Part shown: one piece after another, positions 38,353 through 55,130 of the stretch
How the letters are laid out: each line of letters opens with the position of its first letter
Numbering within the stretch: position 1 is the stretch's first letter
Assembly: GCA_015523295.1 (NCBI GenBank)
Contig: WAKQ01000009.1
Span: 12,805-76,804 of the forward strand
Reading direction: 5' to 3'
DNA from: Desulfurococcales archaeon
GTDB lineage: Archaea; Thermoproteota; Thermoprotei_A; Sulfolobales; NBVN01
DNA length: 64,000 nucleotides
Program-made: the position numbers and the translations under genes
Notes under the pieces: generated by a model
The model's database searches: none
What the model was told of the DNA's origin: nothing
The model's input: the letters and a program-made list of their open reading frames with translations, nothing else

Positions 38353-39615
38353 CTAGATCTTAAACTTAGTTGCTGATTCTGTCTCTGCTACTATTTTGCC
38401 TCTGCTTAGGACATACTTAGGCGGCTCGTGATGCCATATCACCTCATAAACGGACCTTCCTTCATGCACCAGCAGATCGGCTGGACACCCCTCCTTGATG
38501 CCGCAGAAACTGAGGTTCATGGCCTTCATAGCCCTCCAAGTAATCATGTCCATGAACTCATCCATGTCTTTGAGAGTCATTGACCAGGTAATGTGTGAGG
38601 CCAGGAATGCTACTTCAAGCATGTTGTTTCGCCCATAAGGGTAATAAGCGTCGGAGATGTCATCCTGCCCTAAAGCTACATTTAAGCCGAATTTAAGCAT
38701 CTCTTTGAATGGTAGATGGAGAGGTCCGGTGTGAGGATCCATTACGAATGACATACCTGCCTTCTTAGAAAGTCTCATGACTTTAAGTAGTGTGGGTTTT
38801 CCATAGGTTGATAGGGCTCTAGCGTGGCAAGCCGTAACCCTGTCTTTCCATCCCATTTTTATGGCTTCAGAGGCTAATATTTCTGTAGTCCTGAGGAAGG
38901 GATCGCCTGCATCGTCTGTAAGCATGGCTACATCTCTATCGAACTCTTTCGCAAGCGTTAACGCCTTTCGCACATGAGATAGGGCATCCTCTTCAGTGAG
39001 TTCAATCCAAGGAATCCCTCCAACTACATCTGCTCCGAGCTCCAGTGCCTTCCTAACGTAGTCTTCAGCACCTTCATCTCTGATGAGACCGTCTTGCGGG
39101 AATGCCACAACTTGGATGTTCATCACGTGCTTTAATTCGTCTCTAACCCTGAGCAAAGCCTTAATTCCTTCTAACCTGGCCTTAGTGTCGGTATCTACGA
39201 ATGCCCTTAAGTGCAGGGTGCCGTGCTTTAAAGCCTCTAAGGCAGCCTTCTTCGCATTCTCATAAATCCAGTCCTCACTATATTTCTCCTTAACCTTAGA
39301 TGCAAGCTCGATAGCGGCCATAGCACCCCCCATCCCGCTGGACTGATATTGCCTCACCGCTGCCTCTCCAAGCATGAGGAATGTGTAGACCTTACACATG
39401 TGAATGTGAGGGTTTGCGAAAGGCTCAGTCACTAGCCCGCCTTTCGCGTCAATCTCTATTATACCTTTAGACGTGATGCCTTCCGAAACCTTCCTGATCT
39501 CTCCACCTGAAATGCCTATATCATATACCCTGTCTGCGGGATGATATCTTAGCCTAGCGTTCCTAATGATGACATCGTATTCCTCAACCAATATGAAACA
39601 CCTATTAAAAATCAA
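38353..39615 (-). CDS. Amidohydrolase-superfamily enzyme, cytosine-deaminase/AtzC-like
   Basis: The metal motif FANPHIHMCK (HxH) resembles the CodA PHIHLD motif. 420 aa, with the typical later His/Asp pattern (ACHARAL, GQDDISD). Confidence 0.75.
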   Translation of the reverse strand: MIFNRCFILVEEYDVIIRNARLRYHPADRVYDIGISGGEIRKVSEGITSKGIIEIDAKGGLVTEPFANPHIHMCKVYTFLMLGEAAVRQYQSSGMGGAMAAIELASKVKEKYSEDWIYENAKKAALEALKHGTLHLRAFVDTDTKARLEGIKALLRVRDELKHVMNIQVVAFPQDGLIRDEGAEDYVRKALELGADVVGGIPWIELTEEDALSHVRKALTLAKEFDRDVAMLTDDAGDPFLRTTEILASEAIKMGWKDRVTACHARALSTYGKPTLLKVMRLSKKAGMSFVMDPHTGPLHLPFKEMLKFGLNVALGQDDISDAYYPYGRNNMLEVAFLASHITWSMTLKDMDEFMDMITWRAMKAMNLSFCGIKEGCPADLLVHEGRSVYEVIWHHEPPKYVLSRGKIVAETESATKFKI

Positions 39616-39653
39616 ATGAGAAGGTATATATGGTTTAAAACGTTCGAAAATGG

Positions 39654-39839
39654 CTACAAGATCTTCTTAAGGATGTCCTCCAAATCCTTTTCTAGTTCAG
39701 GCTTAGGCTGCCATATCACGTGGGCGGCGTTGACTCCCTGCTTTCTGAGTTCCTTGTAGAAGTACTCTAGGCCAACGTTTATTACCTTGACCTCCTCTTT
39801 GAACAGCCTCAGCACCTTGCTCACATCAGGTTCGGACAT
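39654..39839 (-). CDS. Small protein (61 aa) of the FdrA cluster; resembles the short N-terminal extension seen on some long DUF1116 proteins
   Basis: VINVGLEYFYKELRKQGVNAAHVIWQP pattern. It lies 6 nt downstream of the FdrA stop on the same strand. Confidence 0.45.
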   Translation of the reverse strand: MSEPDVSKVLRLFKEEVKVINVGLEYFYKELRKQGVNAAHVIWQPKPELEKDLEDILKKIL

Positions 39840-39845
39840 AACCTC

Positions 39846-41465
39846 TCACCTCCTACCAACTAAGTATTTTTCAAAGAAGTTCCGGGCGGTTCTTTCTGAA
39901 GAGTCTCCCTTAGCTATCATTCCAGCAACCAAGGCCATCAAAGCATTTGTTGGCAGGAGGATGACGCCAGCCTTTCTTAGCTTATTCTCCTGCTCTAAGG
40001 CATTCTGAGGGTCTCTCTCTGTACCCACCACGTGAGCTAAAATTGTCAGATGGCGGCCGCTGTCTGACGCTATTTCCTTCGCCTTCTTTATCGCGCTGAG
40101 GTGGGCCTCCGCCGGGTCTGGATGTGATCCGTAACCTAGCACGAAATCAAGCATGATTACAGCAGTTTCAGGGTCCTTAGCTTCCTGCACTATTCTCTGC
40201 AGTCTAATGGTTGGGTCTATCATTGGGTGGGCTCTTCCCGCAGTGAACTCTTCTTCACCTAAGTCAATAACACTGTGCTCCTTGCTTATCCAGGCGTTGG
40301 GGAGGGTGAAGTCCTTATTTAGCGGTGTGTTTGACCATACATCACCTAGGAATTCTTTGAAGATGACTTGAGATTCATAGAGTAGAGTGCCTCCGGTGAA
40401 GAGGCCTCTCACATATCTCTGACCTTCCCTCAGTTTGCTCAGCTCATCCTCAACGATCTTGGCAACCTTTTCTGGGGGAAGGGATATCCTCTCCAATGCC
40501 TTCTCATAAAGTGAATTACTGACGAACCTTATTGATTCGAGAGATGCAGCATGTAATGTGTTCGTCTGCACAAGCCTCCCTTTAAGCTCGACAGGAATGG
40601 AGAACTCCTGACCGCCTATGAAGCATGTGACATATTTCTTCCTCCCTTTATCCCTAATCAAGTTAACGATCTTTTCCTGCACGTCTGGAGAAGGAGGCTT
40701 AGACACTATTGTAATTACTTCAGTGTTTTCATCAGCCTCCAACGCCCTCATAGAGAATAACGTCATCATACCTCCAACTGGTGACTTCACATCACGTCCT
40801 CCTACGCCAATGCCTTGCGTGATCCCGGAACCCCCTCTCGTGATAAGCACGCTCGTTTCTTGGAGCCCTGTACCTGCTGCAGCGACAATACCTATAGGTC
40901 CCCTGTCAACCACATTGGCGAATGCCAGCGCAACCCCATTTATAATTGATGTGCCGGCTTCAGGTCCCATAACCAGTACTCCTTTTTCTAGGGCTGCTTT
41001 CTTAAGCTCTATCTCATCCTCTAAAGGTACATGATCGCTGAATAAGTGAATGTGTATCCCCCTATTTATGAACTCCATTACAACATCCTTCGCGTATTTT
41101 CCCGGGACGGACACTAGTGCAACATTTGCACCAGGTAACGCTTTCAACGCTGATTCAATACTGTAGTAGTAAGTCTCTCCTGATTCCGCAGGTCTTGTAA
41201 GCAGTTCCTCGATCTCTCTAATTATTCCGTGAATGTCTGCAGAGTCCTCAGCCTTAACAGCGATAATCATGTCATTCTCGCTAGCCCTCCTACCCTCTTC
41301 AGTAAGGAGTCCCTCCTTCTCAAGGAGCTCTTTATTAAGTTCCGTGCCCATTGCCAGGGCCGCATCGATGACTCCCTTGAGTTTCTTCACTTCTTCGCTA
41401 AGATGGAGGAGCTGTACAGAGTCCCTGAAGAAGTTAGTTTTAACAATGTTCTTCACCCTGGCCAT
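39846..41465 (-). CDS. fdrA: FdrA-family protein (succinyl-CoA-synthetase-alpha-like; AllF-type)
   Basis: About 540 aa. The N-terminus MARVKNIVKTNFFRDSVQLLHLS resembles E. coli FdrA (FQDSVSLM). CoA-binding/ligase-CoA Gly-rich segments are present. The ATG at 41465 is preferred over the track start at 41483. Confidence 0.75.
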   Translation of the reverse strand: MARVKNIVKTNFFRDSVQLLHLSEEVKKLKGVIDAALAMGTELNKELLEKEGLLTEEGRRASENDMIIAVKAEDSADIHGIIREIEELLTRPAESGETYYYSIESALKALPGANVALVSVPGKYAKDVVMEFINRGIHIHLFSDHVPLEDEIELKKAALEKGVLVMGPEAGTSIINGVALAFANVVDRGPIGIVAAAGTGLQETSVLITRGGSGITQGIGVGGRDVKSPVGGMMTLFSMRALEADENTEVITIVSKPPSPDVQEKIVNLIRDKGRKKYVTCFIGGQEFSIPVELKGRLVQTNTLHAASLESIRFVSNSLYEKALERISLPPEKVAKIVEDELSKLREGQRYVRGLFTGGTLLYESQVIFKEFLGDVWSNTPLNKDFTLPNAWISKEHSVIDLGEEEFTAGRAHPMIDPTIRLQRIVQEAKDPETAVIMLDFVLGYGSHPDPAEAHLSAIKKAKEIASDSGRHLTILAHVVGTERDPQNALEQENKLRKAGVILLPTNALMALVAGMIAKGDSSERTARNFFEKYLVGRR

Positions 41466-41558
41466 TTCCCATGCCTCACACAAGTTAAGATTTGCTAGAA
41501 TTCGTTATAAAAGATTTATGCTTTAAAAATAAATTTAATAAACGTGTTCTTCAAAGTG

Positions 41559-42476
41559 TCACTTCCTTTCTTCATCTGTGCATATGGCGGTAAGTCTGCA
41601 GAAGGCCGATTCCCCACCGACGAACTTAAATGGGAAGGCAGAGATTAGACACCTTCTGTTCAGGACCTTCCTTATTTCCCCGCCAGCATTTTCAACGTGG
41701 AGCACACCCTTCGGGAAGAGGTATGTGTGCATCAGCTGGAAGTTCTCAGGCCAGGGCATGACGTCCTGGATCTTCTTCCCATGCTTCTTCTCAAACTCCT
41801 CCACTATATCTGGACGTATTCTCCTGATTGGCGTGTTCAACGGATGATCCTGTGATGCAGCGTCTACCGCCGTCCACCTTATTTTATTCTTGACGAGCCA
41901 GTCAGCGAACTCTTTTATAGGTCCTGGATGCTTAAGCATGTACCTCACGGTGTTGGCTTCAGGCCTATAGTAAGCGTACCTGTCATAGCCTGTATGAATT
42001 ATGAGTATGTCATAAGGCTTGAGACCTAAGTTATACGACCTTATCTTCTCCTCTATTAAGTCGGATGTATATATATCTAGGTCACCTACATCCTCACTTA
42101 TATCAACTATAATCCCCTCACCTATCCAGTACTCAATAGGTATTGACGCGATGTCAAGGCCAGCTGAATCGAAGTGAAGAGGTCCATCCATATGTGTTCC
42201 TATATGAAGGGGTGTCTGAATGTACTGGGCTCCAACACCATGCTCGTATATTACTTTAATCCATTTGAACTCGAAGGGCGGATATGTCGGGAATGGTGGT
42301 GAGAGAGTGCTCAATGGCTGAGATAGGTCGTATACTTTAGCATTAGACCAGTCAACGACCTTGCTCCAGTCGTAGGTAGGCTTCTTTTTAAGGACTTCGG
42401 CAGTAAACTCCTCTAACACGTTGCCTGGACGCGGTTTCCAGTTCATCCATCTGTCAGAACTGAAGTATATTGACAT
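41559..42476 (-). CDS. Cyclase-family metal-dependent amidase (kynurenine formamidase/isatin hydrolase-like)
   Basis: Signature HIGTHMDGPLHF (HxGTHxDxPxH). Confidence 0.8.
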   Translation of the reverse strand: MSIYFSSDRWMNWKPRPGNVLEEFTAEVLKKKPTYDWSKVVDWSNAKVYDLSQPLSTLSPPFPTYPPFEFKWIKVIYEHGVGAQYIQTPLHIGTHMDGPLHFDSAGLDIASIPIEYWIGEGIIVDISEDVGDLDIYTSDLIEEKIRSYNLGLKPYDILIIHTGYDRYAYYRPEANTVRYMLKHPGPIKEFADWLVKNKIRWTAVDAASQDHPLNTPIRRIRPDIVEEFEKKHGKKIQDVMPWPENFQLMHTYLFPKGVLHVENAGGEIRKVLNRRCLISAFPFKFVGGESAFCRLTAICTDEERK

Positions 42477-42545
42477 TATTGAAACCTCAATGTAATTACT
42501 ACGGCAAATGTTTTAAACGTTTTTTTGGCAGAGGTTATCATGACA

Positions 42546-43523
42546 TCAATTAATGCATGGATGAATGATGTTTTGGAAACTATCTTCTATCCTTTCATGT
42601 ATTCCATCTACTGCTTTTTGAGTGAGTAAACCTTTCAAAGTCAGCAAGCCAGCTATGAATCCCGCAAAGAGGTATATTCCTGAGTCATGCCCGTAATGGA
42701 GGAGGTCCATTAAGCTGTGGATTGAGCGGTTGATATCGTTTTTCAGGAGTGTGTGGAACCCCATTAGTAGCGAATAGGGTAGCTTACCATCTAGTGATTC
42801 TATAAGAAGAAATGCAGAGGTCTCAGTTGTTCTTCCGAATATCTTAAACGGATCGTATACGATTAACTTGTGATGTGTGATTGACTGAGAGATGTAATTT
42901 ATTGAGCCTATGAATCCCGAAAGGAAATCATCGTAGGATGGAGTAGCTCCAGAACCCAGTCCAATGAGGGAATAGGCGGTTTCAGGTAGGTGAGCTGTTT
43001 TGCTAAATAGGTTAATCAAATTTCTCACCTCTCTTATAGTTTCCATCATTTTGGTGAGGATGAAACTATCTATGAACTTCTTCAGGAGTGAGGCAAGCGT
43101 ACAGAATTCTCTGGTTTCCTTTCTTATTATATCCCACCCTACTTTAGTGAGGATGTCAGCACGAACGCGCTCTAATGGTATGTCGGGAAGTAAATAAGCG
43201 TTATTGAGTTTAATAATCATATCGCACGACAATAGCTTGAGAGTCACCTTTCCATTGCCTAACCTTATTTTAATGACTTCTTTAGCACGTGCGCATCTTT
43301 CGAAGCTCTTGAGCGTTTGAAGGAAGGTTAACGGGTCTAAAGTGATGGCTATTGGACTTGTTATGTTTTTGGCTGTAACTGAAAGCATTTGAAGGTTGTT
43401 TAATTTTAGGTTGATCGTATGTGGGTAAACGGAAATAATTTCGGTTCTGAAAAAGCCCGGTCTTTTATTGAGGCGTTGCCAGGCAACCTTACCTAACTTG
43501 GAAGCTTCTAATACGCACTTCAT
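42546..43523 (-). CDS. DUF2877-family protein (YlbF/AllH-like)
   Basis: The motif GLGSGATPSYDDFLSG matches the G-x-G-x-TP-x-x-DD core I associate with DUF2877. The start overlaps the DUF1116 stop. Confidence 0.6.
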   Translation of the reverse strand: MKCVLEASKLGKVAWQRLNKRPGFFRTEIISVYPHTINLKLNNLQMLSVTAKNITSPIAITLDPLTFLQTLKSFERCARAKEVIKIRLGNGKVTLKLLSCDMIIKLNNAYLLPDIPLERVRADILTKVGWDIIRKETREFCTLASLLKKFIDSFILTKMMETIREVRNLINLFSKTAHLPETAYSLIGLGSGATPSYDDFLSGFIGSINYISQSITHHKLIVYDPFKIFGRTTETSAFLLIESLDGKLPYSLLMGFHTLLKNDINRSIHSLMDLLHYGHDSGIYLFAGFIAGLLTLKGLLTQKAVDGIHERIEDSFQNIIHPCIN

Positions 43524-44797
43524 ATTCCATATTTCTCAGCAAACTTTCTTAATGCATTCTTGAAGGGTTCCATGGGGAAGGTAACTATTCCAGCACCGAC
43601 TTGCCCTATGCCTGGTTCCTTGTGTGAGATCCCGGTATTTATGGTCGGGGTTATGCCTGTAGCAACAACTTTTCGTATGTCTACACCTGTTGGTGTCCCT
43701 TGGAAGGAGAGGTAAGGGATGGTGAAGTATTTGTGACGTGTGTATGTTATCTGGTACATTCTTTTGGTGTTCTCTACAGCATATTCGGCTGTTCCACCCA
43801 CATAGCTTACTATTGCTGGGGCTGCTGCCATGGCGAAGCCTCCAAAGCCCGCAGTCTCAGTTATTGATGAGTCCCCTATATCCGGGTTAGCGTCTTCCTC
43901 TTTAAATCCTGGGAAGAGGACGCCTTTAGGTATTGGTGATGGTGCAGTAAACCATTCGTTGCCTAACCCACTTACCCATATTCCCATATCAGTTCCGTTT
44001 CTCGTCATTACAGTGACAATGGTGGAGTATTTGATGTTGTGCGCAGCTAATGTCATAACCTTAGCTGACGCCATCCCCATGTTCAGAGGGAATATTATGT
44101 TGTTGGCTATGAATCTATACGCTTCTAACACATCTTTCCTATCTATTCCTGTGTTGAACATGTAAGGCGCAATCTCCTTTAGGAGGAGTGCGTTCGTAGC
44201 AACGTATCTATTATGACATTCGTCACCCATATGAAGGGCTTGGGCTATCAGGTTCTTGAAGTTGAGTCCCTTCCCCTGATCCTTCTTATATTCATCTATC
44301 GTAGCCTTCAAGACGGGATAGAGGACCTTATCCATCCATTTAAGTCGCTTGATGACCTCCTCTCCATATGCCCCATATCTTAACACCTTCCCGAGTCCTT
44401 CATTCATGTTTGAATATGCCTTGTTTCCATACTTAGGATCTTCAAATATGAAGACGGGCATTGAAGGGGAAATAACACCTGCCATCGGGCCTACGACGTT
44501 ATGAGGGTGTGTGGGTTCGAACACCACCTCGCCCTTCGCCAGAAGCTTTTCAGCTTCCTCTGGGGTGCTCGCCCAACCTTCGTAAATTACAGCGCCAATG
44601 AGCGCACCCCTCAGGGGTCCGGAAGCGCGTTCCCAAGTAATTGGTGGGCCTGCATGAAGAAGCATCCTGTCCTTAAGACCGGTTATAACCTTCCCCGCGA
44701 GATCCATGCCCACCCAATGCGGTTCCGATTCCATCAACCTCTCAACAGCTTGAGTGTTGGCCTTCTCAATCTCTTCTTTTATAGAACTTGAAGTCAT
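43520..44797 (-). CDS. DUF1116-family protein (YlbE/AllG-like)
   Basis: Full-length similarity to remembered YlbE features: LLHAGPPI.W, GEV.F.P.H..N.VGPMAGV, NEGLGKVLRYGAYG, DSSITETAGFGG, TGI.P.INTGI.HKE.G.GQ.GAG. Confidence 0.75.
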   Translation of the reverse strand: MTSSSIKEEIEKANTQAVERLMESEPHWVGMDLAGKVITGLKDRMLLHAGPPITWERASGPLRGALIGAVIYEGWASTPEEAEKLLAKGEVVFEPTHPHNVVGPMAGVISPSMPVFIFEDPKYGNKAYSNMNEGLGKVLRYGAYGEEVIKRLKWMDKVLYPVLKATIDEYKKDQGKGLNFKNLIAQALHMGDECHNRYVATNALLLKEIAPYMFNTGIDRKDVLEAYRFIANNIIFPLNMGMASAKVMTLAAHNIKYSTIVTVMTRNGTDMGIWVSGLGNEWFTAPSPIPKGVLFPGFKEEDANPDIGDSSITETAGFGGFAMAAAPAIVSYVGGTAEYAVENTKRMYQITYTRHKYFTIPYLSFQGTPTGVDIRKVVATGITPTINTGISHKEPGIGQVGAGIVTFPMEPFKNALRKFAEKYGI

Positions 44798-44969: not shown

Positions 44970-45734
44970 TTGTGTGGAACCATGTACGAAATTCCTGTAA
45001 GGACAACATTAAAAGACGGTAAATACTCAGTGTATGCACAATGGGTTGAAGCGTTCCTCAGGCCTCCGAGATCGCCGTTACTGGATAGGCCTTTCGAACC
45101 TAAGTTGGTGGAGTTGAGGAATGGAAGGAAGATGGTTATCAGGATGGCGACTGAGAAAGATCTGCCACTGATATTAGATGTCCTTAGAGACATGATCAAC
45201 TTGCAGATTGATGTCGACTTCTTCGACTTAGTGGCTGCTAGGACATACGCAGAAATTCTCGCAATATTGAGAAAGAGAATTAAGGATGAGTGGGTGATGA
45301 TAGGTGTGTTGGATGACGGTACCCTGGCAGGTCAGGTTAATGCAAGGTTATGGAATGATAAAATAGCGATAAGCCTTCATACAATAGTGTTCAAGAGGAG
45401 GCTAGGTGCTGGACTACCTATGTATCTCGCTAAGATGGAGTACGCCTTTGAAACACTGGGCGTAGAGGAATGGTGGCCAACCTTTGAATCCTACTACGGC
45501 TTCAGAGAGTTCGTGCTCAAACTAGGAACCCATATGAAGCCTTACCCGGAATACCAGCATGAGCTAGGGGGTGCTACAGTATTCTATAACACGAGGGCAG
45601 ACTGGGACAACTACATTAAGCCAACTTGGAAGGAACTCCTTGGCACGCGTCCAGTACCCGAGGAACTCTTAAAGATCGCAGAGAACCCCAAGAAGCCTGA
45701 CGTCAAAGAGGAATTCGGTGATTTCCTTAAATAA
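44970..45734 (+). CDS. Hypothetical protein with a possible GNAT-like fold, divergent from the DUF1116 gene
   Basis: The pattern MVIRMATEKDLPLILDVL...GTLAGQVNARL... is reminiscent of N-acetyltransferase N-terminal strands. Weak call. Confidence 0.4.
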   Translation: MCGTMYEIPVRTTLKDGKYSVYAQWVEAFLRPPRSPLLDRPFEPKLVELRNGRKMVIRMATEKDLPLILDVLRDMINLQIDVDFFDLVAARTYAEILAILRKRIKDEWVMIGVLDDGTLAGQVNARLWNDKIAISLHTIVFKRRLGAGLPMYLAKMEYAFETLGVEEWWPTFESYYGFREFVLKLGTHMKPYPEYQHELGGATVFYNTRADWDNYIKPTWKELLGTRPVPEELLKIAENPKKPDVKEEFGDFLK

Positions 45735-45781: not shown

Positions 45782-46441
45782 TTAGTAAGAATATGGAACT
45801 TCGATCACCTCAATATTATTCTTCATAACCCTGAACCTCACGTTCTTCTTCCCCTTGATTCTGTCTAACTTCTCAAGCTCTTCCATTAGCTTAATCATTC
45901 TTTTCCTTAACCGGTATGTCTTCCTATAATACATGACACCTGTAAAGACTACAGTAGCGAATATGATTGAATCCAGTATCAAGTCATAAAGTATGATTCC
46001 TAGATAAATAGAGGCAGCCCAAATCAAGGTATAGAGCGAGACATCAATGATAGTGCTTCTCCTCACACTTCTCTTCAGTCTTCCTAACTCAACCTCAATG
46101 TCTGTCTTCTCACCTCTTCTTAGGGATAGGATATCGATGGAATGCATGCTGAGGAACTTCTTAATAAAGAGGAATACTTCCAAGCTTGGAAAAACCTTTA
46201 TAGTGGGCACCACGACCGCATCAACTATTATCTCCCCCCTGCTGATAGAGGTTAGGAGCTCGCTTAATCGAGGATAAGTATTTCTTCGGGCTACTGTATC
46301 TTCCCAATCGGCAAAAACCTTAAGAACTTTAAAGCCGTGTTTCTTGCTAACTTCTTCAGTGAGTTGTCTTAGATCCTCTCCTCTCTGTACTACGGCATAA
46401 ACCACGGCGCTCTTGGCAGGGTCGCTCTTCGCATCTGACAC
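45782..46441 (-). CDS. Hypothetical membrane protein: degenerate serine-recombinase(resolvase)-like N-domain, two TM helices and a basic C-tail
   Basis: AVVYAVVQRGED...GFKVLKVFADWEDTVARRNTYPRLSELL...VDAVVVPTIKVF...LSMHSIDILSL follows the resolvase catalytic-domain pattern, but the Ser and Arg positions are substituted. Confidence 0.4.
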   Translation of the reverse strand: MSDAKSDPAKSAVVYAVVQRGEDLRQLTEEVSKKHGFKVLKVFADWEDTVARRNTYPRLSELLTSISRGEIIVDAVVVPTIKVFPSLEVFLFIKKFLSMHSIDILSLRRGEKTDIEVELGRLKRSVRRSTIIDVSLYTLIWAASIYLGIILYDLILDSIIFATVVFTGVMYYRKTYRLRKRMIKLMEELEKLDRIKGKKNVRFRVMKNNIEVIEVPYSY

Positions 46442-46583: not shown

Positions 46584-48266
46584 ATGAAAGTGGATGACTT
46601 AGAGAAATTTTTATTAATCACTGGTTTTAATACTTTAATGACAAGTGATACTATGACTTCTGAAGCACCAGAGGAAAAAAACCCTCAAGAAACTCAATCC
46701 CAGAAGCTTCCTCATAAAAAGCTGAGGAACTTTGAGGAGTGGCGGCGTGAAGCAGCTAAGGGACCTAAGAAGTGGATGATTTATGGGACCGAGGATAAGC
46801 CAGAGTCAATAATCGAGGCTGCGTTTCTAGGGCTTCAGCAGTACTTCATAATGTTTGGAGCTACGGTAGCAGTCCCCATTCTAGTGGCTGGGTGGATCGC
46901 ACAATACTATCAGATCCCGGACAATACTATGAGGTTACTGATCATAGACCTCATCACCATCCAGTTCCTAGGTGCTGGAATCACAACATTACTGCAGACA
47001 TGGCATAAGACGGGAAGCGGTCTACCTATAGTGCAGGGCTCATCATTCTCGTTCCTGGGAAGCCTGTTCGCCATAATAAGCTCTACAAGTATCATCGCTC
47101 AGAGCGAGGGATACCCTGATGTTAAGGCATTCATAGCTGCAGTGCCTGATCCTTGGGTTAGAGCCTCTATAGTCCTCCGTTACACAACTGGGGCCATCAT
47201 AGCGGCTTCGTTCTTCGAGATAATTCTAGGTTACTCCATGTTGATGGGTAAGATTAAGCGCTGGATAACCCCGGTATCTATCGGTCCAACTATCATAATC
47301 ATCGGCCTGTCTCTGTTCGGTGCACCAAGCGCCATGCATACTGCCGAAGGATGGTGGGAGGCCCTTCTAGTGGTGTTCTTCATAATATTATTCAACCAGT
47401 TCATAGGACGTAAATACATTAAGGTGCAGATGTTCTCAGTATTGCTAAGTATAGTGACTGTATGGGTCATAGCAGCAATATTAACAGCTGGTGGATTACT
47501 CAAGGGAGCGACTGCAGTAAACTTCTGGCCAATAGAAGAGGTGGTTAAGACTAACTACTACTTCAGACCCCCATGGATATTCCCATGGGGTCCGCCTAGG
47601 TTCGTGGCTGCCTTTGGGCTAGGGATGATTGCTGCCTACCTAGCAAGCATGGTTGAATCCATAGGCGACTATCACTCAGTGGCAAGAATGTCAGAGGCAC
47701 CACCGCCCACTGAAGACATGATCAGTAAGGGACTGGGTGCTGAAGGCCTAGGATGCTTGATAGGAGGGATATTTGGTGCGGCAGGCGGTTACACTAGCTA
47801 CTCTGAGAATATAGGTGCTATAGGCCTCACTAGAGTGGCAAGCAGGTATGTCTTCCAACTTGGAGGTGCCCTCATCCTCTTCCTAGGAGGAATGATCACT
47901 GCCTGGGGCGCATTCATGGCCACCATGCCAAACCCCATCATCGGTGGCCTCTACCTCTCAGTATTCGGGCTGATAGCCGCCATAGGTGTTTCAGTAGTCT
48001 CAATGGCTAATATGAAGTCATCGAGGAACCTATACATAATAGGTCTTGCTATGTTTGCCGGTCTGGCCGTTCCGCCGATGGCGCAGTCGCAGGCGATGAA
48101 CAACTGGGTAGCCAGTCTCGGGCCGTGGGCTTGGTTGGGTCAGATCCTTCAGGTATTCCTTGAGACTGGCATGGCTGATGCAGCAATTGTAGGCATTATA
48201 CTCGACAACCTACTTCCAGGTACTCCAGAAGAAAGAGGCATGCTACACCCTGACTGGGCATCATAA
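46584..48266 (+). CDS. NCS2/NAT (SLC23-like) nucleobase:cation symporter
   Basis: NAT signature motif ENIGAIGLTR at 47805-47834. Polytopic, 560 aa. The true start may be an internal Met. Confidence 0.8.
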   Translation: MKVDDLEKFLLITGFNTLMTSDTMTSEAPEEKNPQETQSQKLPHKKLRNFEEWRREAAKGPKKWMIYGTEDKPESIIEAAFLGLQQYFIMFGATVAVPILVAGWIAQYYQIPDNTMRLLIIDLITIQFLGAGITTLLQTWHKTGSGLPIVQGSSFSFLGSLFAIISSTSIIAQSEGYPDVKAFIAAVPDPWVRASIVLRYTTGAIIAASFFEIILGYSMLMGKIKRWITPVSIGPTIIIIGLSLFGAPSAMHTAEGWWEALLVVFFIILFNQFIGRKYIKVQMFSVLLSIVTVWVIAAILTAGGLLKGATAVNFWPIEEVVKTNYYFRPPWIFPWGPPRFVAAFGLGMIAAYLASMVESIGDYHSVARMSEAPPPTEDMISKGLGAEGLGCLIGGIFGAAGGYTSYSENIGAIGLTRVASRYVFQLGGALILFLGGMITAWGAFMATMPNPIIGGLYLSVFGLIAAIGVSVVSMANMKSSRNLYIIGLAMFAGLAVPPMAQSQAMNNWVASLGPWAWLGQILQVFLETGMADAAIVGIILDNLLPGTPEERGMLHPDWAS

Positions 48267-48384
48267 TGTTGTAAAAATAATAAAAATATTTTTAAGTAAT
48301 ACTTTACTCATTGTTCAGCTCAATTTAGTAAATTTTGATAAGATTCATTTTAAAAAGTTTAACTGCAGAGCACCCTAGCTCACG

Positions 48385-49002
48385 TTAATTCTCCATGGAG
48401 TTTAAGCGCTCAATAAAATCCAACAGGACCTCAATCACCTCTCTATGCATGAATCTCTGCAGATCTTTAATTCTAGAGTCGCTGAAAGGATATACCACTC
48501 TCTTCTCATTCACATTGACTATATGCGTCACCTTAGTGAAGGATGTCCCTAAAAGATCCCAAGGCATTACCGGCCTTAAATTCCAGGAGTCATACATCTT
48601 CTTCCTAATGTACCTAAGGGCATCTTCTGTGACTCCATTCTCGGTGATCAATACTATATTGTAGAAGTAGAACGTAGCTGGCTTTTTCGGCTTTCTTTTC
48701 TCGAATAATTTATTGATGAGTTTAGCGCTCTCCTGCGTTATGAAGTCTGCACGCTTGATAAGCATGAATATAGCTCTATTCTTGACGCCTACCTTGCTGA
48801 GTTTCTTAAATGCCTCGAAGGTATCTGGGCCGATATTGGTTATTTCAAACCCCCTATTTCTTAACTCCTCTAGGAGGAGGCCTAAAGCAGTCGAAGACCT
48901 CGTCTTCAGCACCCAATAAGTTATTAAGTTATACAGTAGATTAATTAAACCCGTAAATGTTGGTAGAATGCCGTATCTAGGAATCTGTTCAATTACAGTC
49001 AT
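48385..49002 (-). CDS. Hypothetical protein (205 aa), orphan, flanked by AT-rich spacers
   Basis: An ORF only. One N-terminal hydrophobic segment. No motif recognised. Confidence 0.4.
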   Translation of the reverse strand: MTVIEQIPRYGILPTFTGLINLLYNLITYWVLKTRSSTALGLLLEELRNRGFEITNIGPDTFEAFKKLSKVGVKNRAIFMLIKRADFITQESAKLINKLFEKRKPKKPATFYFYNIVLITENGVTEDALRYIRKKMYDSWNLRPVMPWDLLGTSFTKVTHIVNVNEKRVVYPFSDSRIKDLQRFMHREVIEVLLDFIERLNSMEN

Positions 49003-49121
49003 TAAATTTTAGGAGAAAACTTGCTTCTTAATGTTTTTCACGAGACTTTTTTACTATACGGGTAAGATCTTTAAAGCTAAACTTTTATATTGGTAACTGC
49101 TCTTAATATAAATGTGATATC

Positions 49122-51530
49122 TTGCCCGACAGTTATAAATATGTAGGTAGTAAAGTCCAGCGAATTGATAAGGACAAAGTTTTAGGTGGTGCTGAGTTCG
49201 CCTACGATTTTGAGTTACCTGGTATGCTGTGGGCTAAGCTGGTAGGCAGTCCATACCCCCACGCAAAAATAGTATCTGTGGATTATAGTGATGCCTTGAA
49301 GGTTCCTGGGGTTGTGGCAGTATTCACGGGGGAGGACTTTCCCTTCAAAGTAGGTCTCTATGCTGCAGATAGAGACGTTCTAGCTAGGAAGAAGGCCCTC
49401 TACTATGGTCATCCTGTAGCTGCTGTTATAGCGGAATCTCTTGATGCGGCTGAGGAAGCAGCTACGAAGATACAGGTTGAGTATGAGCCTCTCCCCTACT
49501 CCCTTAAGGTCGAGGACTCGCTTAAGCCGGATGCACCGATAATACATGAGGAGATGCACACCTACAAACACGCGGTCTTCATTTACCCCAAGCCAGGCAC
49601 GAATATAGCCCATCAGACGAAAGTGAGGAAAGGTAATGTTGAGGAGGCGTTCTCCAAAGCGGACGTCGTGGTTGAAAAGGTCTATAGGGAGCCACTCCTA
49701 TCACACTATTACTTGGAGCCATGGACAGGCATTGCAAGGGTGAGAAGCGATGGAACTGTAGAGGTTTGGTCCTCTCATCAATCACCTTTCGCTGTGAGGG
49801 AGCTTCTTTCAAAATCCCTAAGCATACCCATGAATAAGTTAGTGGTTCACCACCTTTACACTGGCGGGGGCTTCGGAGGTAAGGCAGGGCTGCTCCTAGA
49901 GCATTTGCCGATACTCTTCTCTAAAAAGCTCGGTGGGAGGCCCGTAAAACTCAGGTTAACTGCAAGGGAGAACTTCTTCTATATGGCTCAAAGAGCGGGC
50001 TACCTGATAAAGATGAAGACCGGTGCAACCAAGGACGGGAAGCTGATAGCACACTGGGGAGAGTATTACCTTGACGCAGGCGCATACGCTGATTACACCG
50101 TCAACATGGCAAGGGCCATAGGTTTAACGGCTACAGGCCCCTACGAAATACCTAATATACATGTGGACTCCTTCGCGGTTTACACGAATAAAGTACCTAC
50201 GACAGCATTCAGAGGATTCACTATGCAGGAGCTTCACTACGCGTTCGAGTCTCAGATAGATGAGCTCGCCCATAAGTTGGGGATGGATCCAGCTGAGTTC
50301 AGATTGCTTAACGTCTTCAAACCAGGGATCTCTAGAACAGCTATAGGTGAGAGACTTAAGGAAGATGCAGGAGACCCGGCCACCCCTATCAAGGAAGTGG
50401 TTAAGATGCTGTCTGAGGATGATGAGAAGCCAAAGAAGCCATGGATTGTTAGAGGTAAGGGTATCGCTGCCTTCTGGAAGGGACCCTTCCAGCCCTCTAG
50501 CGCGGCTTCATCAGCTATCGTTAAGGTCAATGACGACGGCACTGTAGACGTATTGGTAGGTACTGGTGCCATGGGACAGGGCACTATTACGGCACTAACT
50601 CAGATAGTTGCTGAGGAGCTGGGCATACCTCCCGAGATAATAAGAGTATCACCTCATAGGAGCACGGATATGGTTCCATACACGTGGCAGACCGTGGGTT
50701 CAAGAGGGCTGTTCTCGGAGGGTATGTCAGTAATCATGGCTTGCGAAGACCTAATAGAGCAGGTTAGGGAGGTGGCTTCAATAGTCTTTGACGTGAATAA
50801 GAACATGATCGAATACTCTGAAGGGAAGGCATGCGTGAAGGGCGAGCCATGGCATTGTATAACCTTAAAGGAGGCGGCGCTAGGTTATATGAATCCTAAA
50901 GGCGTCACGGTTGGCGGTCCCTTAATTGGCAGAGGCTACTACGTCCCTCCAAGAAACGTGTTGACGGACCCTGAGACGGGACAGGTTCTTGAAGAGGGCC
51001 ACTTAGCTCCCTTCTACACCTTCGGCGCTGGAGGTGTTGAAATAGAGATAAACCTCCTGACCGGCGAGATAAAGGTGCTCAAGGCTGTGTCAGTGTACGA
51101 TACCCCTGCAGTCAACCCCGGCCTAGCTGAAGGGCAGGTCGTGGGAGGAACTGTGATGGGTTTAAACATAGCCATGAGGGAGCGCCTTATCTACGATGAG
51201 GAAGGGGAATACAAGGGTGTCTTTCCCGAAGGAATGCTGTTAAATCCGTGCCTCACAGGTTACCTTCTTGCTAGAGCCAGTGACATACCTGAGAAAATAG
51301 AGTTCAAGTTCTTAGGTGTGAAGCAGAAGGACGCTCCCTTCGGCGCTAAGGGTATCGCAGAGCTTACGATGATTCCATGGCCTGCAGCGCTCGCCAACGC
51401 TATCTACAATGCCATAGGTGTAAGGATAACTGAACTCCCGATAACTCCAGACAAACTCATTGAGGAGATCAGGAAGCAGAAGCCTGAGCTACTGGAGCAA
51501 GCTGAGAAGTACTTGGAGGTGAATCTCTGA
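49122..51530 (+). CDS. Molybdenum hydroxylase large (molybdopterin-binding) subunit, xanthine dehydrogenase/aldehyde oxidoreductase family
   Basis: N-terminus VGSKVQRIDKDKVLGGAEFAYD, TAFRGFT, and C-terminal GAKGIAE catalytic-Glu motif. The CO-dehydrogenase AYRCSFR loop is absent. Confidence 0.85.
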   Translation: MPDSYKYVGSKVQRIDKDKVLGGAEFAYDFELPGMLWAKLVGSPYPHAKIVSVDYSDALKVPGVVAVFTGEDFPFKVGLYAADRDVLARKKALYYGHPVAAVIAESLDAAEEAATKIQVEYEPLPYSLKVEDSLKPDAPIIHEEMHTYKHAVFIYPKPGTNIAHQTKVRKGNVEEAFSKADVVVEKVYREPLLSHYYLEPWTGIARVRSDGTVEVWSSHQSPFAVRELLSKSLSIPMNKLVVHHLYTGGGFGGKAGLLLEHLPILFSKKLGGRPVKLRLTARENFFYMAQRAGYLIKMKTGATKDGKLIAHWGEYYLDAGAYADYTVNMARAIGLTATGPYEIPNIHVDSFAVYTNKVPTTAFRGFTMQELHYAFESQIDELAHKLGMDPAEFRLLNVFKPGISRTAIGERLKEDAGDPATPIKEVVKMLSEDDEKPKKPWIVRGKGIAAFWKGPFQPSSAASSAIVKVNDDGTVDVLVGTGAMGQGTITALTQIVAEELGIPPEIIRVSPHRSTDMVPYTWQTVGSRGLFSEGMSVIMACEDLIEQVREVASIVFDVNKNMIEYSEGKACVKGEPWHCITLKEAALGYMNPKGVTVGGPLIGRGYYVPPRNVLTDPETGQVLEEGHLAPFYTFGAGGVEIEINLLTGEIKVLKAVSVYDTPAVNPGLAEGQVVGGTVMGLNIAMRERLIYDEEGEYKGVFPEGMLLNPCLTGYLLARASDIPEKIEFKFLGVKQKDAPFGAKGIAELTMIPWPAALANAIYNAIGVRITELPITPDKLIEEIRKQKPELLEQAEKYLEVNL

Positions 51531-51540
51531 GGTGATCCCC

Positions 51541-52476
51541 ATGAGTGTAGGGAACACACGTAAGGAGAGCGCCGTCGTCCTTTGGAGAGAGTATTTCCCC
51601 AGGTATGAGTACTTTAAAGTGTCCTCTTTAGAGGAGGCACTAAAGCTTAAGGCAGAGTACGGTGAGAACGCGTATATTGGAGCAGGCTTCACGTGCTTAA
51701 CGAGGAGAATGAGAGCTGGGAAAATCTTCCCCAAGTACATCATAGATATTAAAGGTGTTGAAGAACTCAAGAAAATTGAATCCAATGGAGACGAGATCTT
51801 CATAGGTTCAGCGGTGACCTTCCATGAGCTCAAGGCCAATTCTTTGATAGCGGAGCACCTCCCAGCCTTGAGGGATGCCGCGCTCGGTTACGGGGATCTA
51901 GAGCTGAGCTATAGGGCCACAATAGGGGGCAATATAGGTAATGCATCACCGCAGGCTGACTCAGCAGCCCCCCTCTTAGTCTACAGGGCGAGAGTAGTAC
52001 TGAAGAGTTTAAGTGGGGAGAGGGAGCTCCCGCTCGAAGAGTTTATCGTGGGAGTCAATAAGACGGCAATAAAGCCTGATGAAATAATTACGGGATTCAG
52101 AATACCCCACCCTCCAGCAGGGAGTAAGTCAGGTTACCTGAAATTCAAACGGTCTGCAGAGGATAGAGCTGTAGTTGGGATAGCAGCATTAGTAGCTAAT
52201 ATCAAGGAACCCAGCCAGAGGACGGTGAGGCTGGCGTACGTATCTATAGCTAAGACTCCTGTCTACTTGAGGGAAGCGGAGGAGATATTCAAGAAGGATG
52301 AGCCGATCAATAAATTAATCAATGAGGCGGTGGAAGCTGCGCAGTCAAAGTACGACATGCCCGTTGGTAAGAGAGGGATAGATCTCAGGGCTACTAAGGA
52401 GTACAGGCTCCACCTAATTAAAATAGGTACTAAGGCTTTGCTCAAGAAACTAATTGAGGGTGTGGAGGTGTTATGA
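51541..52476 (+). CDS. Molybdenum hydroxylase FAD-binding medium subunit (CoxM/CutB-like)
   Basis: FAD-binding PCMH-type pattern (IGAGFT..., ATIGGNIGNASP). The ATG at 51541 follows a GAGGTGAT ribosome-binding site. Confidence 0.85.
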   Translation: MSVGNTRKESAVVLWREYFPRYEYFKVSSLEEALKLKAEYGENAYIGAGFTCLTRRMRAGKIFPKYIIDIKGVEELKKIESNGDEIFIGSAVTFHELKANSLIAEHLPALRDAALGYGDLELSYRATIGGNIGNASPQADSAAPLLVYRARVVLKSLSGERELPLEEFIVGVNKTAIKPDEIITGFRIPHPPAGSKSGYLKFKRSAEDRAVVGIAALVANIKEPSQRTVRLAYVSIAKTPVYLREAEEIFKKDEPINKLINEAVEAAQSKYDMPVGKRGIDLRATKEYRLHLIKIGTKALLKKLIEGVEVL

Positions 52477-52477
52477 G

Positions 52478-52960
52478 ATGAAGCCGGTGAGAATAACCTT
52501 AACGGTTAACGGGATTAAGAGAGAGCTCGACGTCATGCCTAACGAGAGCCTGCTGCACGTGCTGAGGGACAGGCTCCATATAATCAGCGTTAAGGGTAAC
52601 TGCTTCAGGGGCGAGTGCGGTATCTGTACAGTGCTGATGAATGGAAGGCCCGTTAAGTCATGTCAGGTTCTAGCACCCGAGGCCGACGGCTCAGAAATAG
52701 TGACTCTAGAAGGCCTCGTTAAGAATGGTGAGCCCTCCTTAGTTCAGAAGGCGTTCCTCGAGGAGTTCGGATATCAGTGCGGCTTCTGCACATCAGCATT
52801 CGTCCTCCTAGGGGAGTGGATAATAAATAACATACCGAATCCTACGGAGGAGCAAATAAAGGAGGTACTCAACGCTGTTGTGTGTAGATGCACGGGCTAT
52901 CAGCAGATAATAAAAGCAATCATGAAGGCCGCTCAATGGAAACGAGAAGGTAAAAGCTAA
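52478..52960 (+). CDS. Molybdenum hydroxylase [2Fe-2S] small subunit (CoxS/CutC-like)
   Basis: CFRGECGICTV, CGFCTSAF and CRCTGY cluster motifs. The ATG at 52478 follows GGAGGTG. Confidence 0.9.
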   Translation: MKPVRITLTVNGIKRELDVMPNESLLHVLRDRLHIISVKGNCFRGECGICTVLMNGRPVKSCQVLAPEADGSEIVTLEGLVKNGEPSLVQKAFLEEFGYQCGFCTSAFVLLGEWIINNIPNPTEEQIKEVLNAVVCRCTGYQQIIKAIMKAAQWKREGKS

Positions 52961-53094
52961 GGATCCTTAGTCAAATTTCTTTTTTATTATGTAATGTTAT
53001 TAAATAAAAATCTTATTGAATAACTACTAGCAGTTTGCAGTATATTCAGATTATCTGCGGCGATATCTACATATCCCTCCTTCATATCTTTAGG

Positions 53095-54015
53095 ATGGGG
53101 GTAGTGTTGGAAGCGATGACTCACTACGTAAGTGTTAAGGGGCGTTCATTCATAGTACGGCCTCCGGCCACGCCAGAGGAACATATAGAGCTTATGGAGC
53201 TCGAGAGGCTTATCTGGGGAAGCGATTATAGGGATGTAGTTCCCTATCACATAACTATCCCTTTGGCTGAGATGGGGGGCGTTGTCCTAGGCGTCTATGA
53301 GGTTGGCATCGGGAAAGCCGTAGGTGTTCTCGTTATGTTTCCAGCCATTAGTGAGGGTAAGGTACATTATCACTCGCACATCCTGGGCTTCCTGAAAGAG
53401 TATAGGGGCCAGGGGCTCGGCACTAAGATTAAAGAGATTCAGAGAATGATATCCATTCAACGTGGAATAGACTTAATTACTTGGACCTTTGACCCTCTCC
53501 TCCTCAGCAATGCTTGGTTAAATATAGTGAAGATGGGCGTGGTCGTTAAGGAGTACAGAATTAACTATTACGGCGTCGGCGCTTTCGAGTATAACAGGGG
53601 TGTTGAGACAGATCGCTTCATGGCTGAATGGCATCTTAAATCAGAAAGAGTTAAGAGAAGGTTGGATAAGGGGGAGCTGAAGGTTCAAACTCTCAGTCAC
53701 TATATCAATGATGTAGGTGCGGAAATAGTTCTTGACGCTGATATAGTCGATGGTTACCTCAAACCGGGTAAGCCTAAGCTTACTTCAAGGAATGACGTAT
53801 TGCTCGTTAGAATACCTGATAACTTCGTGAAAATTCTCACGAGCTCGCTAAGTTTAGCTAATGAATGGAGGTTGAAGAGTAGATTGGCTCTCAGGCACTA
53901 TCTCCTTAGGAAGTACGTAGTTATCGACATCACAGCAGATGAATCCAGAGAGCGTTACTATTATGTTATGTGGAAGAACGGCTATGAGAGAGCTCTAGAA
54001 GGTGAGCTTCCATGA
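53095..54015 (+). CDS. GNAT-superfamily acyltransferase-like protein (COG3375-type)
   Basis: The pattern ...HSHILGFLKEYRGQGLGTKIK... (Q/RxxGxG/A) is typical of GNAT. The stop overlaps the next start. Confidence 0.55.
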   Translation: MGVVLEAMTHYVSVKGRSFIVRPPATPEEHIELMELERLIWGSDYRDVVPYHITIPLAEMGGVVLGVYEVGIGKAVGVLVMFPAISEGKVHYHSHILGFLKEYRGQGLGTKIKEIQRMISIQRGIDLITWTFDPLLLSNAWLNIVKMGVVVKEYRINYYGVGAFEYNRGVETDRFMAEWHLKSERVKRRLDKGELKVQTLSHYINDVGAEIVLDADIVDGYLKPGKPKLTSRNDVLLVRIPDNFVKILTSSLSLANEWRLKSRLALRHYLLRKYVVIDITADESRERYYYVMWKNGYERALEGELP

Positions 54016-55130
54016 GGCTCAAGAAAATAATATTGCATCACTTAAGAATGCCTATGAAGGAGACCTTTAAGACTGCCATCAGCGTCGACGTGGTCAGGGA
54101 GACTCTCATTGTTGAAGCATGGGAGAAGTCAGGTGAGATCGGTTGGGGGGAGGTAGTTGCCGATGTAGCACCATGGTATAGCTGTGAAACGGTGGCCACC
54201 GCATGGCACATCGTTAAGGACTTCATAGCGCCTACGTTAAAGGGTAAGGAAGTGACTCCAATGACTTTCAAGGAGATGGTCTCCGGAATAAGGGGTCATA
54301 GAATGGCGAAGGCCGGAGTAGAATTCGCCCTCTGGGACATTGAAGGTAAGCTTAGGGGGAAGCCCCTACGTGAGCTAATAGGTGGCGTGAAGGAGAGAGT
54401 GGAGATCGGGCTGAGTGTCGGAGTCATAGGTGATGAAGATCTTCTATTAAAGACGGTGATGAAAGGCTTGGAAGCAGGGTTTAGGAGAATAAAGCTTAAG
54501 GTGAAGCCGGGATGGGTGATAAGGCCCGTGAAGAGGGTGAGAGCCGAGTTCGGGAATATCCCCCTCCAAGTTGACGCGAACGGGTCCTTCAACTTCACTG
54601 AAGAGCATATAGCTATTTTAAGGAAGCTAGACTCCTATGATTTACTCATGATTGAACAGCCTTTACACCACGAGGATCTCCTCCAGCACTCAAAGCTACA
54701 GAAAATGCTGAAGACGCCAATATGTCTTGATGAGAGCATACGTTCTTTAATGGATGCCAGAGCCGCTCACGAACTAGGTGCCTGTAAGGTGATTAACATA
54801 AAGCCCGGTAGAGTGGGTGGTCTCCTTGAGACTTTAAGGATACACGATTATGCTCTGAAGTCAGGTATTCCCGTATGGATAGGCGGCATGCTTGAGTCAG
54901 GGGTGGGCAGGGCTTACGCAATAGCTGCAGCTACATTACCTGGAATTAGATATCCTAACGACATATCGCCAAGTGATAGGTTCTGGGTAAAGGACATAGT
55001 TGAGCCTCCTTGGAGGATGATGGGTGACGGCACTATTGAAGCGCCTAAGAAGCCTGGGATAGGCGTGGAGGTCTTAGAGAGGGTTCTCAGGTCTTATGAG
55101 GTTAGATCAGTAGGTATAGAACTCAACTAG
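54012..55130 (+). CDS. Enolase-superfamily enzyme: o-succinylbenzoate synthase / N-acylamino-acid racemase (MenC/NSAR-like)
   Basis: KLKV (KxK), VDANGSF, MIEQPL and CLDES motifs are spaced as in the MLE subgroup of the enolase superfamily. Confidence 0.8.
   Translation: MRLKKIILHHLRMPMKETFKTAISVDVVRETLIVEAWEKSGEIGWGEVVADVAPWYSCETVATAWHIVKDFIAPTLKGKEVTPMTFKEMVSGIRGHRMAKAGVEFALWDIEGKLRGKPLRELIGGVKERVEIGLSVGVIGDEDLLLKTVMKGLEAGFRRIKLKVKPGWVIRPVKRVRAEFGNIPLQVDANGSFNFTEEHIAILRKLDSYDLLMIEQPLHHEDLLQHSKLQKMLKTPICLDESIRSLMDARAAHELGACKVINIKPGRVGGLLETLRIHDYALKSGIPVWIGGMLESGVGRAYAIAAATLPGIRYPNDISPSDRFWVKDIVEPPWRMMGDGTIEAPKKPGIGVEVLERVLRSYEVRSVGIELN

Follow-up and report, generated by a model that had tools for sequence, protein, structure and literature searches.

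A nucleobase permease, a molybdenum hydroxylase and AllFGH-like genes in a conserved cluster of archaea and bacteria: candidates for pyrimidine-base catabolism

This report concerns a permease gene and the genes of a molybdenum hydroxylase in a 64,000-nucleotide stretch of contig WAKQ01000009.1 (hereafter the window), which is part of a 0.93-Mb metagenome-assembled genome that is 77% complete. The nearest named relatives of this genome are Desulfurococcales genomes from hydrothermal vents. The NCS2/NAT permease, the hydroxylase downstream of it and the AllFGH-like genes upstream of it form one system, as observed from three independent lines of evidence, namely gene neighbourhood, phylogeny and genome-level co-occurrence. 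Judging from the sequences, we presume, with a probability of about 55%, that the permease and the hydroxylase are parts of a conserved cluster for the catabolism of pyrimidine bases, the former as a uracil/thymine importer and the latter as a uracil/thymine C6-hydroxylase.

A preliminary description of the window had proposed that the permease, the hydroxylase and an AllFGH-like cluster constitute an island for the import and hydroxylation of a nucleobase. This idea was borne out by a conserved neighbourhood and by genome co-occurrence in several archaeal phyla and in bacteria. The hydroxylase genes adjoin those for AllF, AllG, AllH and a cyclase-family protein in Desulfurococcales, Sulfolobales, Pyrodictiaceae, Nitrososphaeria, Bathyarchaeia and Aigarchaeota, in differing gene orders, and AllF or AllG was located within 10 kb in 49 of the 87 loci of the hydroxylase clade. 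All 30 sampled large subunits adjacent to AllF or AllG, archaeal and bacterial, fell into one clade of 47 with a Shimodaira-Hasegawa-like approximate likelihood ratio (SH-aLRT) support of 99. Neither AllF nor AllG was ever found near the more distant large-subunit relatives outside this clade (36% identity or less). In the window, the cluster was found upstream of the permease as described, with AllG, AllH, the cyclase-family hydrolase, AllF and a CodA-like amidohydrolase at 38353-44797. The hydroxylase, which had been placed about 0.9 kb downstream of the permease, begins after a measured gap of 855 nt, and this gap contains a minus-strand gene (48385-49002).

Subsequently, 201 genomes of the same class were compared. 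The hydroxylase clade was present in 14 of them, all 14 of which also carry AllG, and AllG was present in 17 overall. These 14 genomes span nine genera and seven families, and the kin among them are not independent. The permease was found in six genomes, each carrying both the hydroxylase and AllG; in three of the five permease-bearing genomes other than that of the window, it lay within a few kb of AllG. The transporter slot of the cluster is swapped among loci: an NCS2 permease occupies it in the window and in three other loci (L006, L023 and L049), an NCS1 transporter in four (L004, L051, L067 and L085), and a Bmp-type ATP-binding cassette (ABC) transporter in many others.

Two further features of the related loci concern the hydroxylase itself. 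Three Bathyarchaeia loci (L012, L063 and L074) contain two tandem sets of the hydroxylase subunit genes, which suggests either two related substrates, for example uracil and thymine, or two successive hydroxylations. Inside the bacterial cluster of Maledivibacter halophilus (L203:14021-14821), we observed an equivalog of YqeB, a protein of selenium-dependent molybdenum cofactor (Moco) maturation (385 bits, cut-off 220); hence, the clostridial version of the cluster may have a selenium-dependent hydroxylase.

The hydroxylase had been described as a complete set of large, medium and small subunits (49122-52960) without the Cys loop of CO dehydrogenase, and both statements were upheld. All three subunits and their domains are present. 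The large subunit (802 residues) consists of the a/b-hammerhead and two Moco-binding domains, and it is accompanied by an FAD subunit and a 2x[2Fe-2S] subunit with all eight cluster cysteines (Cys 50, 55, 58, 70 and Cys 109, 112, 144, 146), as is characteristic of the xanthine dehydrogenase (XDH) family. The small subunit probably starts at ATG 52478, just past the stop codon of the FAD subunit. The loop VAYRCSFR aligned to TAFR-GFTMQE, which lacks the Cys. The catalytic Glu (E747) and the Mo-proximal Gln (Q220) are aligned to those of the family and are invariant in the clade. Clade-invariant residues in the Moco- and substrate-binding segments of the family are E260, Y325, V327, N328, R331, E370, K453, P455, W522, Q523 and T524, of which R331 is offset by one residue from bovine Arg880 in the sequence alignment.

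No NCBIfam equivalog cut-off was reached by the large subunit. The best match was XdhA (425 bits, cut-off 780), followed by 4-hydroxybenzoyl-CoA reductase (391, cut-off 995), glyceraldehyde oxidoreductase NF041018 (approximately 385-386, cut-off 790), PucD (360, cut-off 784), CO dehydrogenase (288, cut-off 991) and XdhB (253, cut-off 850). The marks of a bona fide xanthine dehydrogenase are lacking: the XdhA, PucD and XdhB scores are under the cut-offs and Ala follows the GGGFGGK motif. Glu802 of the bovine enzyme is a substrate-binding residue in xanthine dehydrogenase, and its position is occupied by Ala in 56 of the 63 cluster-linked large subunits. When a library clustered at 50% identity was used, the whole clade formed a single cluster and the next representative was 42% identical. 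The named members of the clade are all archaeal, from Desulfurococcales, Sulfolobales, Pyrodictiaceae, Nitrososphaeria, Bathyarchaeia, Aigarchaeota and Asgard lineages.

The genes might also be neighbours by chance, in which case the hydroxylase would serve central metabolism as an aldehyde or glyceraldehyde oxidoreductase and have nothing to do with the permease or AllFGH. The three-subunit form is shared by crenarchaeal glyceraldehyde oxidoreductases, the window genome encodes two further paralogues, and two clade members (L009 and L010) lie beside an Fe-alcohol dehydrogenase gene, not AllFGH. The preliminary description had called for a phylogenetic placement of the large subunit and had counted grouping with crenarchaeal glyceraldehyde/aldehyde oxidoreductases towards a refutation. 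No grouping with glyceraldehyde oxidoreductases was seen: the clade excluded glyceraldehyde oxidoreductase as well as XdhA, XdhD and PaoC of Escherichia coli; the glyceraldehyde oxidoreductase reference (L110, 1344 bits) was joined by a paralogue on contig C10 of the window genome (L002). True glyceraldehyde oxidoreductases, scoring up to 1344 bits, were detected in 47 of the 201 class genomes and in none of the 17 genomes of the window family. Taken together with the low score on the glyceraldehyde oxidoreductase model and the presence of AllG in every hydroxylase-bearing genome, these results make a chance association highly improbable.

The two paralogues, L002 and L003, are encoded close together on contig C10 (101732-108727) and are 37% and 34% identical to the large subunit of the window. 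The one that groups with the glyceraldehyde oxidoreductase reference nevertheless scores only 436 bits against the cut-off of 790. We also attempted to use an AlphaFold2 model of the large subunit for pocket analysis. The mean predicted local distance difference test (pLDDT) value was 70, and the cofactor and substrate loops (residues 244-261, 359-365, 457-460, 511-528 and 740-745) were below 50; hence, the pocket was not read from the model and this approach was dropped.

The permease is the sole NCS2 gene found in the window genome. Its open reading frame (ORF) of 560 residues matched the Pfam Xan_ur_permease model at 225.4 bits (cut-off 27). About the first 40 residues have no counterpart in alignments with relatives, and a protein 97% identical to it is 536 residues long, so that translation probably starts at an internal ATG near 46653. 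The protein belongs to a prokaryotic SLC23-like group with members in Deltaproteobacteria, Thermoplasmata, Spirochaetia and others. The closest solved structure is SVCT1 (7ytw, 8jew), with approximately 500 aligned residues and 247 bits, compared with 58 for UapA and 42 for UraA. On the NCBIfam models for PbuX-type xanthine permease (TIGR03173) and UraA-type uracil permease (NF007995), the permease scored 189.5 bits (cut-off 414) and 58.8 bits (cut-off 477), respectively, below the cut-off in each case.

The signature ENIGAIGLTR was found exactly where it had been placed (47805-47834), at residues 408-417. It agrees with the motif of transmembrane segment (TMS) 10 in the NAT family, [Q/E/P]-N-x-G-x4-T-[R/K/G], which in nucleobase carriers is preceded by an aromatic residue at a distance of two positions, and reads S-Y-S-E-N-I-G-A-I-G-L-T-R, that is, the nucleobase S-Y-S-E form and not the S-S-S-P form of ascorbate transporters (PMC5972032). 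The TMS8 motif E-x-x-G-D/H/G is present as ESIGD. In TMS1 (46815-46830), the window permease has QQ in place of the Gln-His pair, as do 13 of the 15 proteins closest to it. The QH pair, which is nearly universal in NAT and is also found in the SVCT clade, is kept by the less closely related members of the prokaryotic SLC23-like group. As in the window permease, the first motif residue is E in UraA and RutG, which share with it the TMS1 sequence MFGATV; these proteins are 24-27% identical to the window permease and have ExxGH instead of ExxGD in TMS8.

The preliminary description had judged uracil at least as likely a substrate as xanthine, on the basis of the first motif residue. The underlying rule agrees with the aligned references, in which this residue is Q in XanQ and UacT of E. 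coli, E in UraA and RutG, and P in SVCT1. The guess of a uracil-type specificity is supported by the cluster context, whereas the motif did not stand as its reason: the prokaryotic SLC23-like subgroup shares E at this position almost throughout (108 of 120 members), and the overall similarity of the permease is far from UraA. A substrate call from the motif residue alone was accordingly dropped.

The context of the cluster in other genomes leans clearly to pyrimidines and not to purines, as far as gene content indicates. Every cluster-linked NCS2 permease has E at the first motif position. The permeases of bacterial clusters are UraA/RutG-like, with 183-313 bits compared with 41-142 for XanQ/UacT and with up to 43% identity to UraA. 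In the cultured Anoxybacter fermentans and M. halophilus, members of the bacterial sister group, a permease of this kind with the motif ENTGVLALTK is encoded between the hydroxylase and AllFGH; it is 41-43% identical to E. coli UraA and scores 281-313 bits, against 80-142 bits for XanQ/UacT. The same UraA-like pattern was seen in metagenomic bacterial loci. In another locus (L109), a CodB equivalog (579 bits, cut-off 326) and a CodA-like gene are located next to the hydroxylase.

Nine archaeal loci, including L070:5270-6187, contain a neighbour family of approximately 300 residues, the first 150 of which matched the model of a desulfidase related to thiouracil desulfidase (TudS), below the cut-off (103 bits, cut-off 130). 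This neighbour may provide a feeder step from thiouracil to uracil. Furthermore, a permease 47% identical to that of the window, also SLC23-like and of the E type, was found in Syntrophobacterales (L204, CP070774.1 1558249-1575673), as a single example. It is surrounded by a PreA equivalog and genes for PreT-like and carbamoyl-amidase-like proteins, aminotransferases and methylmalonate-semialdehyde dehydrogenase, and from this content the locus looks like a cluster for reductive pyrimidine degradation.

Genes for the handling of C3 and C4 acids were also observed. One locus (L108) contains full-length MdcA (887 bits) and a CN-hydrolase, and the Anoxybacter cluster contains an MmdA-type carboxyltransferase, OAD gamma, a biotin carrier and OAD beta. 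Among the archaeal loci, methylmalonyl-CoA mutase, PrpD with methylisocitrate lyase, and thiolase were found only in those with AllF or AllG, in more than one arrangement. Such (methyl)malonyl-CoA and malonate neighbours agree with the formation of malonate from uracil and of methylmalonate from thymine, and do not agree with the C2 products of purines.

Gene content, motifs, clade membership, linkage and co-occurrence were observed, and every substrate and every reaction of the following route we infer. Uracil and/or thymine would be imported by the permease, and cytosine could enter via the CodA-like deaminase. The Mo/FAD/[2Fe-2S] hydroxylase would hydroxylate C6 to form barbiturate or 5-methylbarbiturate, and a metal hydrolase, probably the cyclase-family enzyme, would open the ring to form ureidomalonate. 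This would present the AllFGH-like enzyme with an acylurea that exceeds oxalurate, the known substrate of AllFGH (PMC11326118), by one CH2. Ureidomalonate and phosphate would be converted to carbamoyl phosphate and malonamate, carbamate kinase of the window genome could form ATP from the former, and the C3/C4 acid would pass onward as (methyl)malonate or (methyl)malonyl-CoA. Assignment of a malonamate-hydrolysing protein is a guess. The order uptake, hydroxylation, ring hydrolysis and carbamoyl transfer, which had been put forward from the window alone, fits the conserved gene set.

Several observations weigh against this assignment. The permease and the hydroxylase are not one transcript, because a gene on the opposite strand lies between them. 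Since E in the motif is a trait of the whole subgroup, it is weak evidence of the substrate by itself. In 38 of the 87 clade loci, including the nine sampled Asgard loci (Heimdall-/Hodarchaeota) and some of Desulfurococcales, neither AllF nor AllG was found within 10 kb, and some of these loci are short contigs; in one Desulfurococcales genus checked genome-wide, the hydroxylase was not adjacent to AllFGH and AllG was on another contig. Barbiturase/AtzD (PF09663) gave no match in the 77%-complete genome, a weak negative because the control genomes were blank too, and with no such homologue found the ring-opening enzyme is a guess. The propionate and methylmalonyl-CoA neighbours could reflect lineage-specific gene order. 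The literature yielded no cloned or characterised uracil/thymine dehydrogenase sequence for comparison.

The remaining points of this kind bear on purine catabolism, in which xanthine, urate or hypoxanthine would be imported, the hydroxylase would be a divergent xanthine dehydrogenase, and AllFGH would act on a purine-derived ureide such as oxalurate. The permease is nearer in profile score to the xanthine-permease subfamily (pbuX) than to UraA (189 and 59 bits), XdhA is the best NCBIfam match of the large subunit, and PucR-family regulators occur in bacterial clusters. Purine nucleosides are the best-known ligands of Bmp-type binding proteins. The sole characterised AllFGH enzyme, that of E. 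coli, cleaves oxalurate derived from allantoin, a purine product (PMC11326118). Against these stand the XdhA and PucD scores far under the cut-offs and the Ala at the position of bovine Glu802. Genes resembling those for guanine deaminase, hydantoinase, YgeW or SsnA were found in none of the linked loci, no Q-type permease like those of E. coli for xanthine and urate occupies the transporter slot, and the downstream genes are for C3/C4 acids rather than glyoxylate or oxamate. We thus regard the purine explanation as quite unlikely.

Another cyclic ureide or N-heterocycle, such as hydantoin, a parabanate-type ring, orotate or a modified pyrimidine, could be ring-opened to an acylurea for AllFGH. 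The linkage evidence settles the partnership of the proteins and not their substrate; in some clusters the NCS1 relatives match allantoin-permease profiles best, far under the cut-off, and the GNAT-fold protein described below and two conserved genes are without an assigned step. The transporters of UraA-like and CodB type, the CodA-like deaminases and the genes for (methyl)malonyl-CoA point instead to ordinary pyrimidine bases, and we consider a different ring unlikely.

The genes around the permease and the hydroxylase are listed in Table 1. The FdrA/DUF1116/DUF2877 set of three proteins is encoded upstream of the permease on the minus strand. The cyclase-family (PF04199) gene was found in 29 loci positive for AllF or AllG. 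The GNAT-fold protein occurred in 23 such loci and in none of the negative ones; its AlphaFold2 model (254 residues, pLDDT 87) matched GNAT acyltransferases by Foldseek, with N- and C-terminal extensions, and a protein atlas search likewise gave GNAT-like clusters. Malonyl-CoA decarboxylases are GNAT-fold enzymes, which is a lead only for this protein. Further core members of the cluster are CoxG and a ThiS-like protein. Carbamate kinase was detected above the cut-off in the window genome and is also encoded within some clusters.

Three small conserved genes are without an assigned function and gave no match in Pfam or NCBIfam. The 61-residue ORF starts 7 nt past the AllF stop codon, and most of the related loci of archaea and bacteria have a homologue in this place; its product may be a so far overlooked partner of the AllFGH-like enzyme or a fourth subunit of it. 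The gene between the permease and the hydroxylase has homologues of 35-40% identity in five Desulfurococcales loci, where they adjoin the permease or AllG, and in the protein atlas it matched only low-scoring unnamed clusters. Its conserved part begins near residue 38, and the real start is therefore probably downstream of the annotated one. The third gene, on the other side of the permease, has homologues beside the permease in three related loci.

Table 1. Genes of the cluster and its surroundings, with positions counted from the first nucleotide of the window.
Feature	Position	Strand	Basis
CodA-like (cytosine-deaminase-like) amidohydrolase	38353-39615	-	best NCBIfam match PRK07572, 251 bits (cut-off 438)
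Conserved 61-residue ORF just downstream of AllF	39654-39839	-	homologues after AllF in related loci
AllF/FdrA-like subunit	39846-41483	-	NCBIfam FdrA, 446 bits (cut-off 433)
Cyclase-family metal hydrolase, candidate ring-opening amidase	41559-42476	-	PF04199
AllH-like subunit (DUF2877)	42546-43523	-	PF11392
AllG-like subunit (DUF1116)	43520-44797	-	PF06545, 294 bits
GNAT-fold protein without Pfam match, core cluster member	44970-45734	+	occurrence in loci; AlphaFold2/Foldseek
Conserved gene adjoining the permease, function not assigned	45782-46441	-	homologues in three related loci
NCS2/NAT permease, prokaryotic SLC23-like subgroup, likely pyrimidine nucleobase importer	46584-48266	+	Pfam PF00860
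NAT signature ENIGAIGLTR in TMS10, extended nucleobase-type form S-Y-S-E-N	47805-47834	+	residues 408-417 of the permease
Conserved gene between permease and hydroxylase, function not assigned, conserved part about 170 residues	48385-49002	-	homologues in related loci
Molybdenum hydroxylase large (Moco) subunit, candidate uracil/thymine C6-hydroxylase	49122-51530	+	Ald_Xan_dh_C, MoCoBD_1, MoCoBD_2
FAD-binding medium subunit	51532-52476	+	PF00941, PF03450
2x[2Fe-2S] small subunit, likely start ATG 52478	52454-52960	+	PF00111, PF01799

Downstream of the hydroxylase, on the plus strand at 53035-55130, the gene for a weakly GNAT-like protein extends into the beginning of one for an enolase of the o-succinylbenzoate-synthase/N-acylamino-acid-racemase type (TIGR01928, 341 bits). 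In related loci, neither of these two is kept with the cluster.

The system was then compared with known ones. The uracil/thymine dehydrogenase of the oxidative pyrimidine pathway has three subunits. The proposed first step and the intermediates barbiturate and ureidomalonate are the same as in this pathway (EC 1.17.99.4, barbiturase and ureidomalonase) of Rhodococcus and other aerobes, which is named in PMC12507026 and PMC3758960. The window cluster differs in that it would cleave the acylurea with phosphate to form carbamoyl phosphate, whereas the classical hydrolysis yields urea; moreover, hosts of window-type clusters are mostly anaerobes and archaea, and no gene for an AtzD-family barbiturase was found. 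With oxamic transcarbamylase AllFGH and AllK of E. coli, it shares the FdrA/DUF1116/DUF2877 set and a carbamate kinase in the genome or the cluster. The E. coli enzyme follows the allantoin pathway, whereas the set described here has as its partners a Mo hydroxylase and nucleobase transporters, along with a hydrolase of the cyclase family and a GNAT-fold protein. The hydroxylase has the subunit set, the cofactor motifs and the catalytic Glu and Gln of bovine and Rhodobacter capsulatus XDH and E. coli XdhABC, and is distinguished from them by Ala at the Glu802 position, by its own clade and by its own invariant residues, including P455 and K453.

NAT permeases, the XDH family and AllFGH are known families, and the literature that we found contains no description of their conserved combination. 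We found no paper that treats an archaeal pathway of this kind, a linkage between AllFGH-like genes and Mo hydroxylases, or barbiturate in anaerobes. A 2025 survey reported allFGHK in nitrifier genomes and read it as use of oxalurate, without a link to a hydroxylase (PMC12625717). Among public sequencing runs, no RNA run was listed as carrying the sequence, and one DNA run, a hydrothermal-vent metagenome and probably the origin of this DNA, was.

Pyrimidine bases are degraded by four textbook routes, namely the reductive, oxidative, Rut and URC routes, and to our knowledge none of them is established in Thermoproteota. Our best reading of the cluster is an oxidative pyrimidine pathway with a phosphorolytic ending. 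We suggest, as a tentative extension, that the large-subunit clade may comprise the genes for uracil/thymine dehydrogenase (EC 1.17.99.4) and, together with the AllFGH homologues, may mark a further pyrimidine route widespread in anaerobic archaea and bacteria. This route would gain energy via carbamoyl phosphate and, in some bacteria, via a sodium-pumping (methyl)malonyl-CoA decarboxylase, and its archaeal hosts would be Thermoproteota, Bathyarchaeia and non-ammonia-oxidising Nitrososphaeria.

If these proposals are true, the cluster provides candidate genes for the first enzyme of the oxidative route, to which no genes were found assigned in the literature, and a second class of substrate for the newly identified AllFGH enzyme. 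It would also give the prokaryotic SLC23-like permeases, which are uncharacterised, a reference point for their function. The reading is directly testable, because the cultured A. fermentans and M. halophilus carry the bacterial version of the cluster. Finally, it would explain how archaea of vents and sediments could draw ATP and nitrogen from nucleobases.

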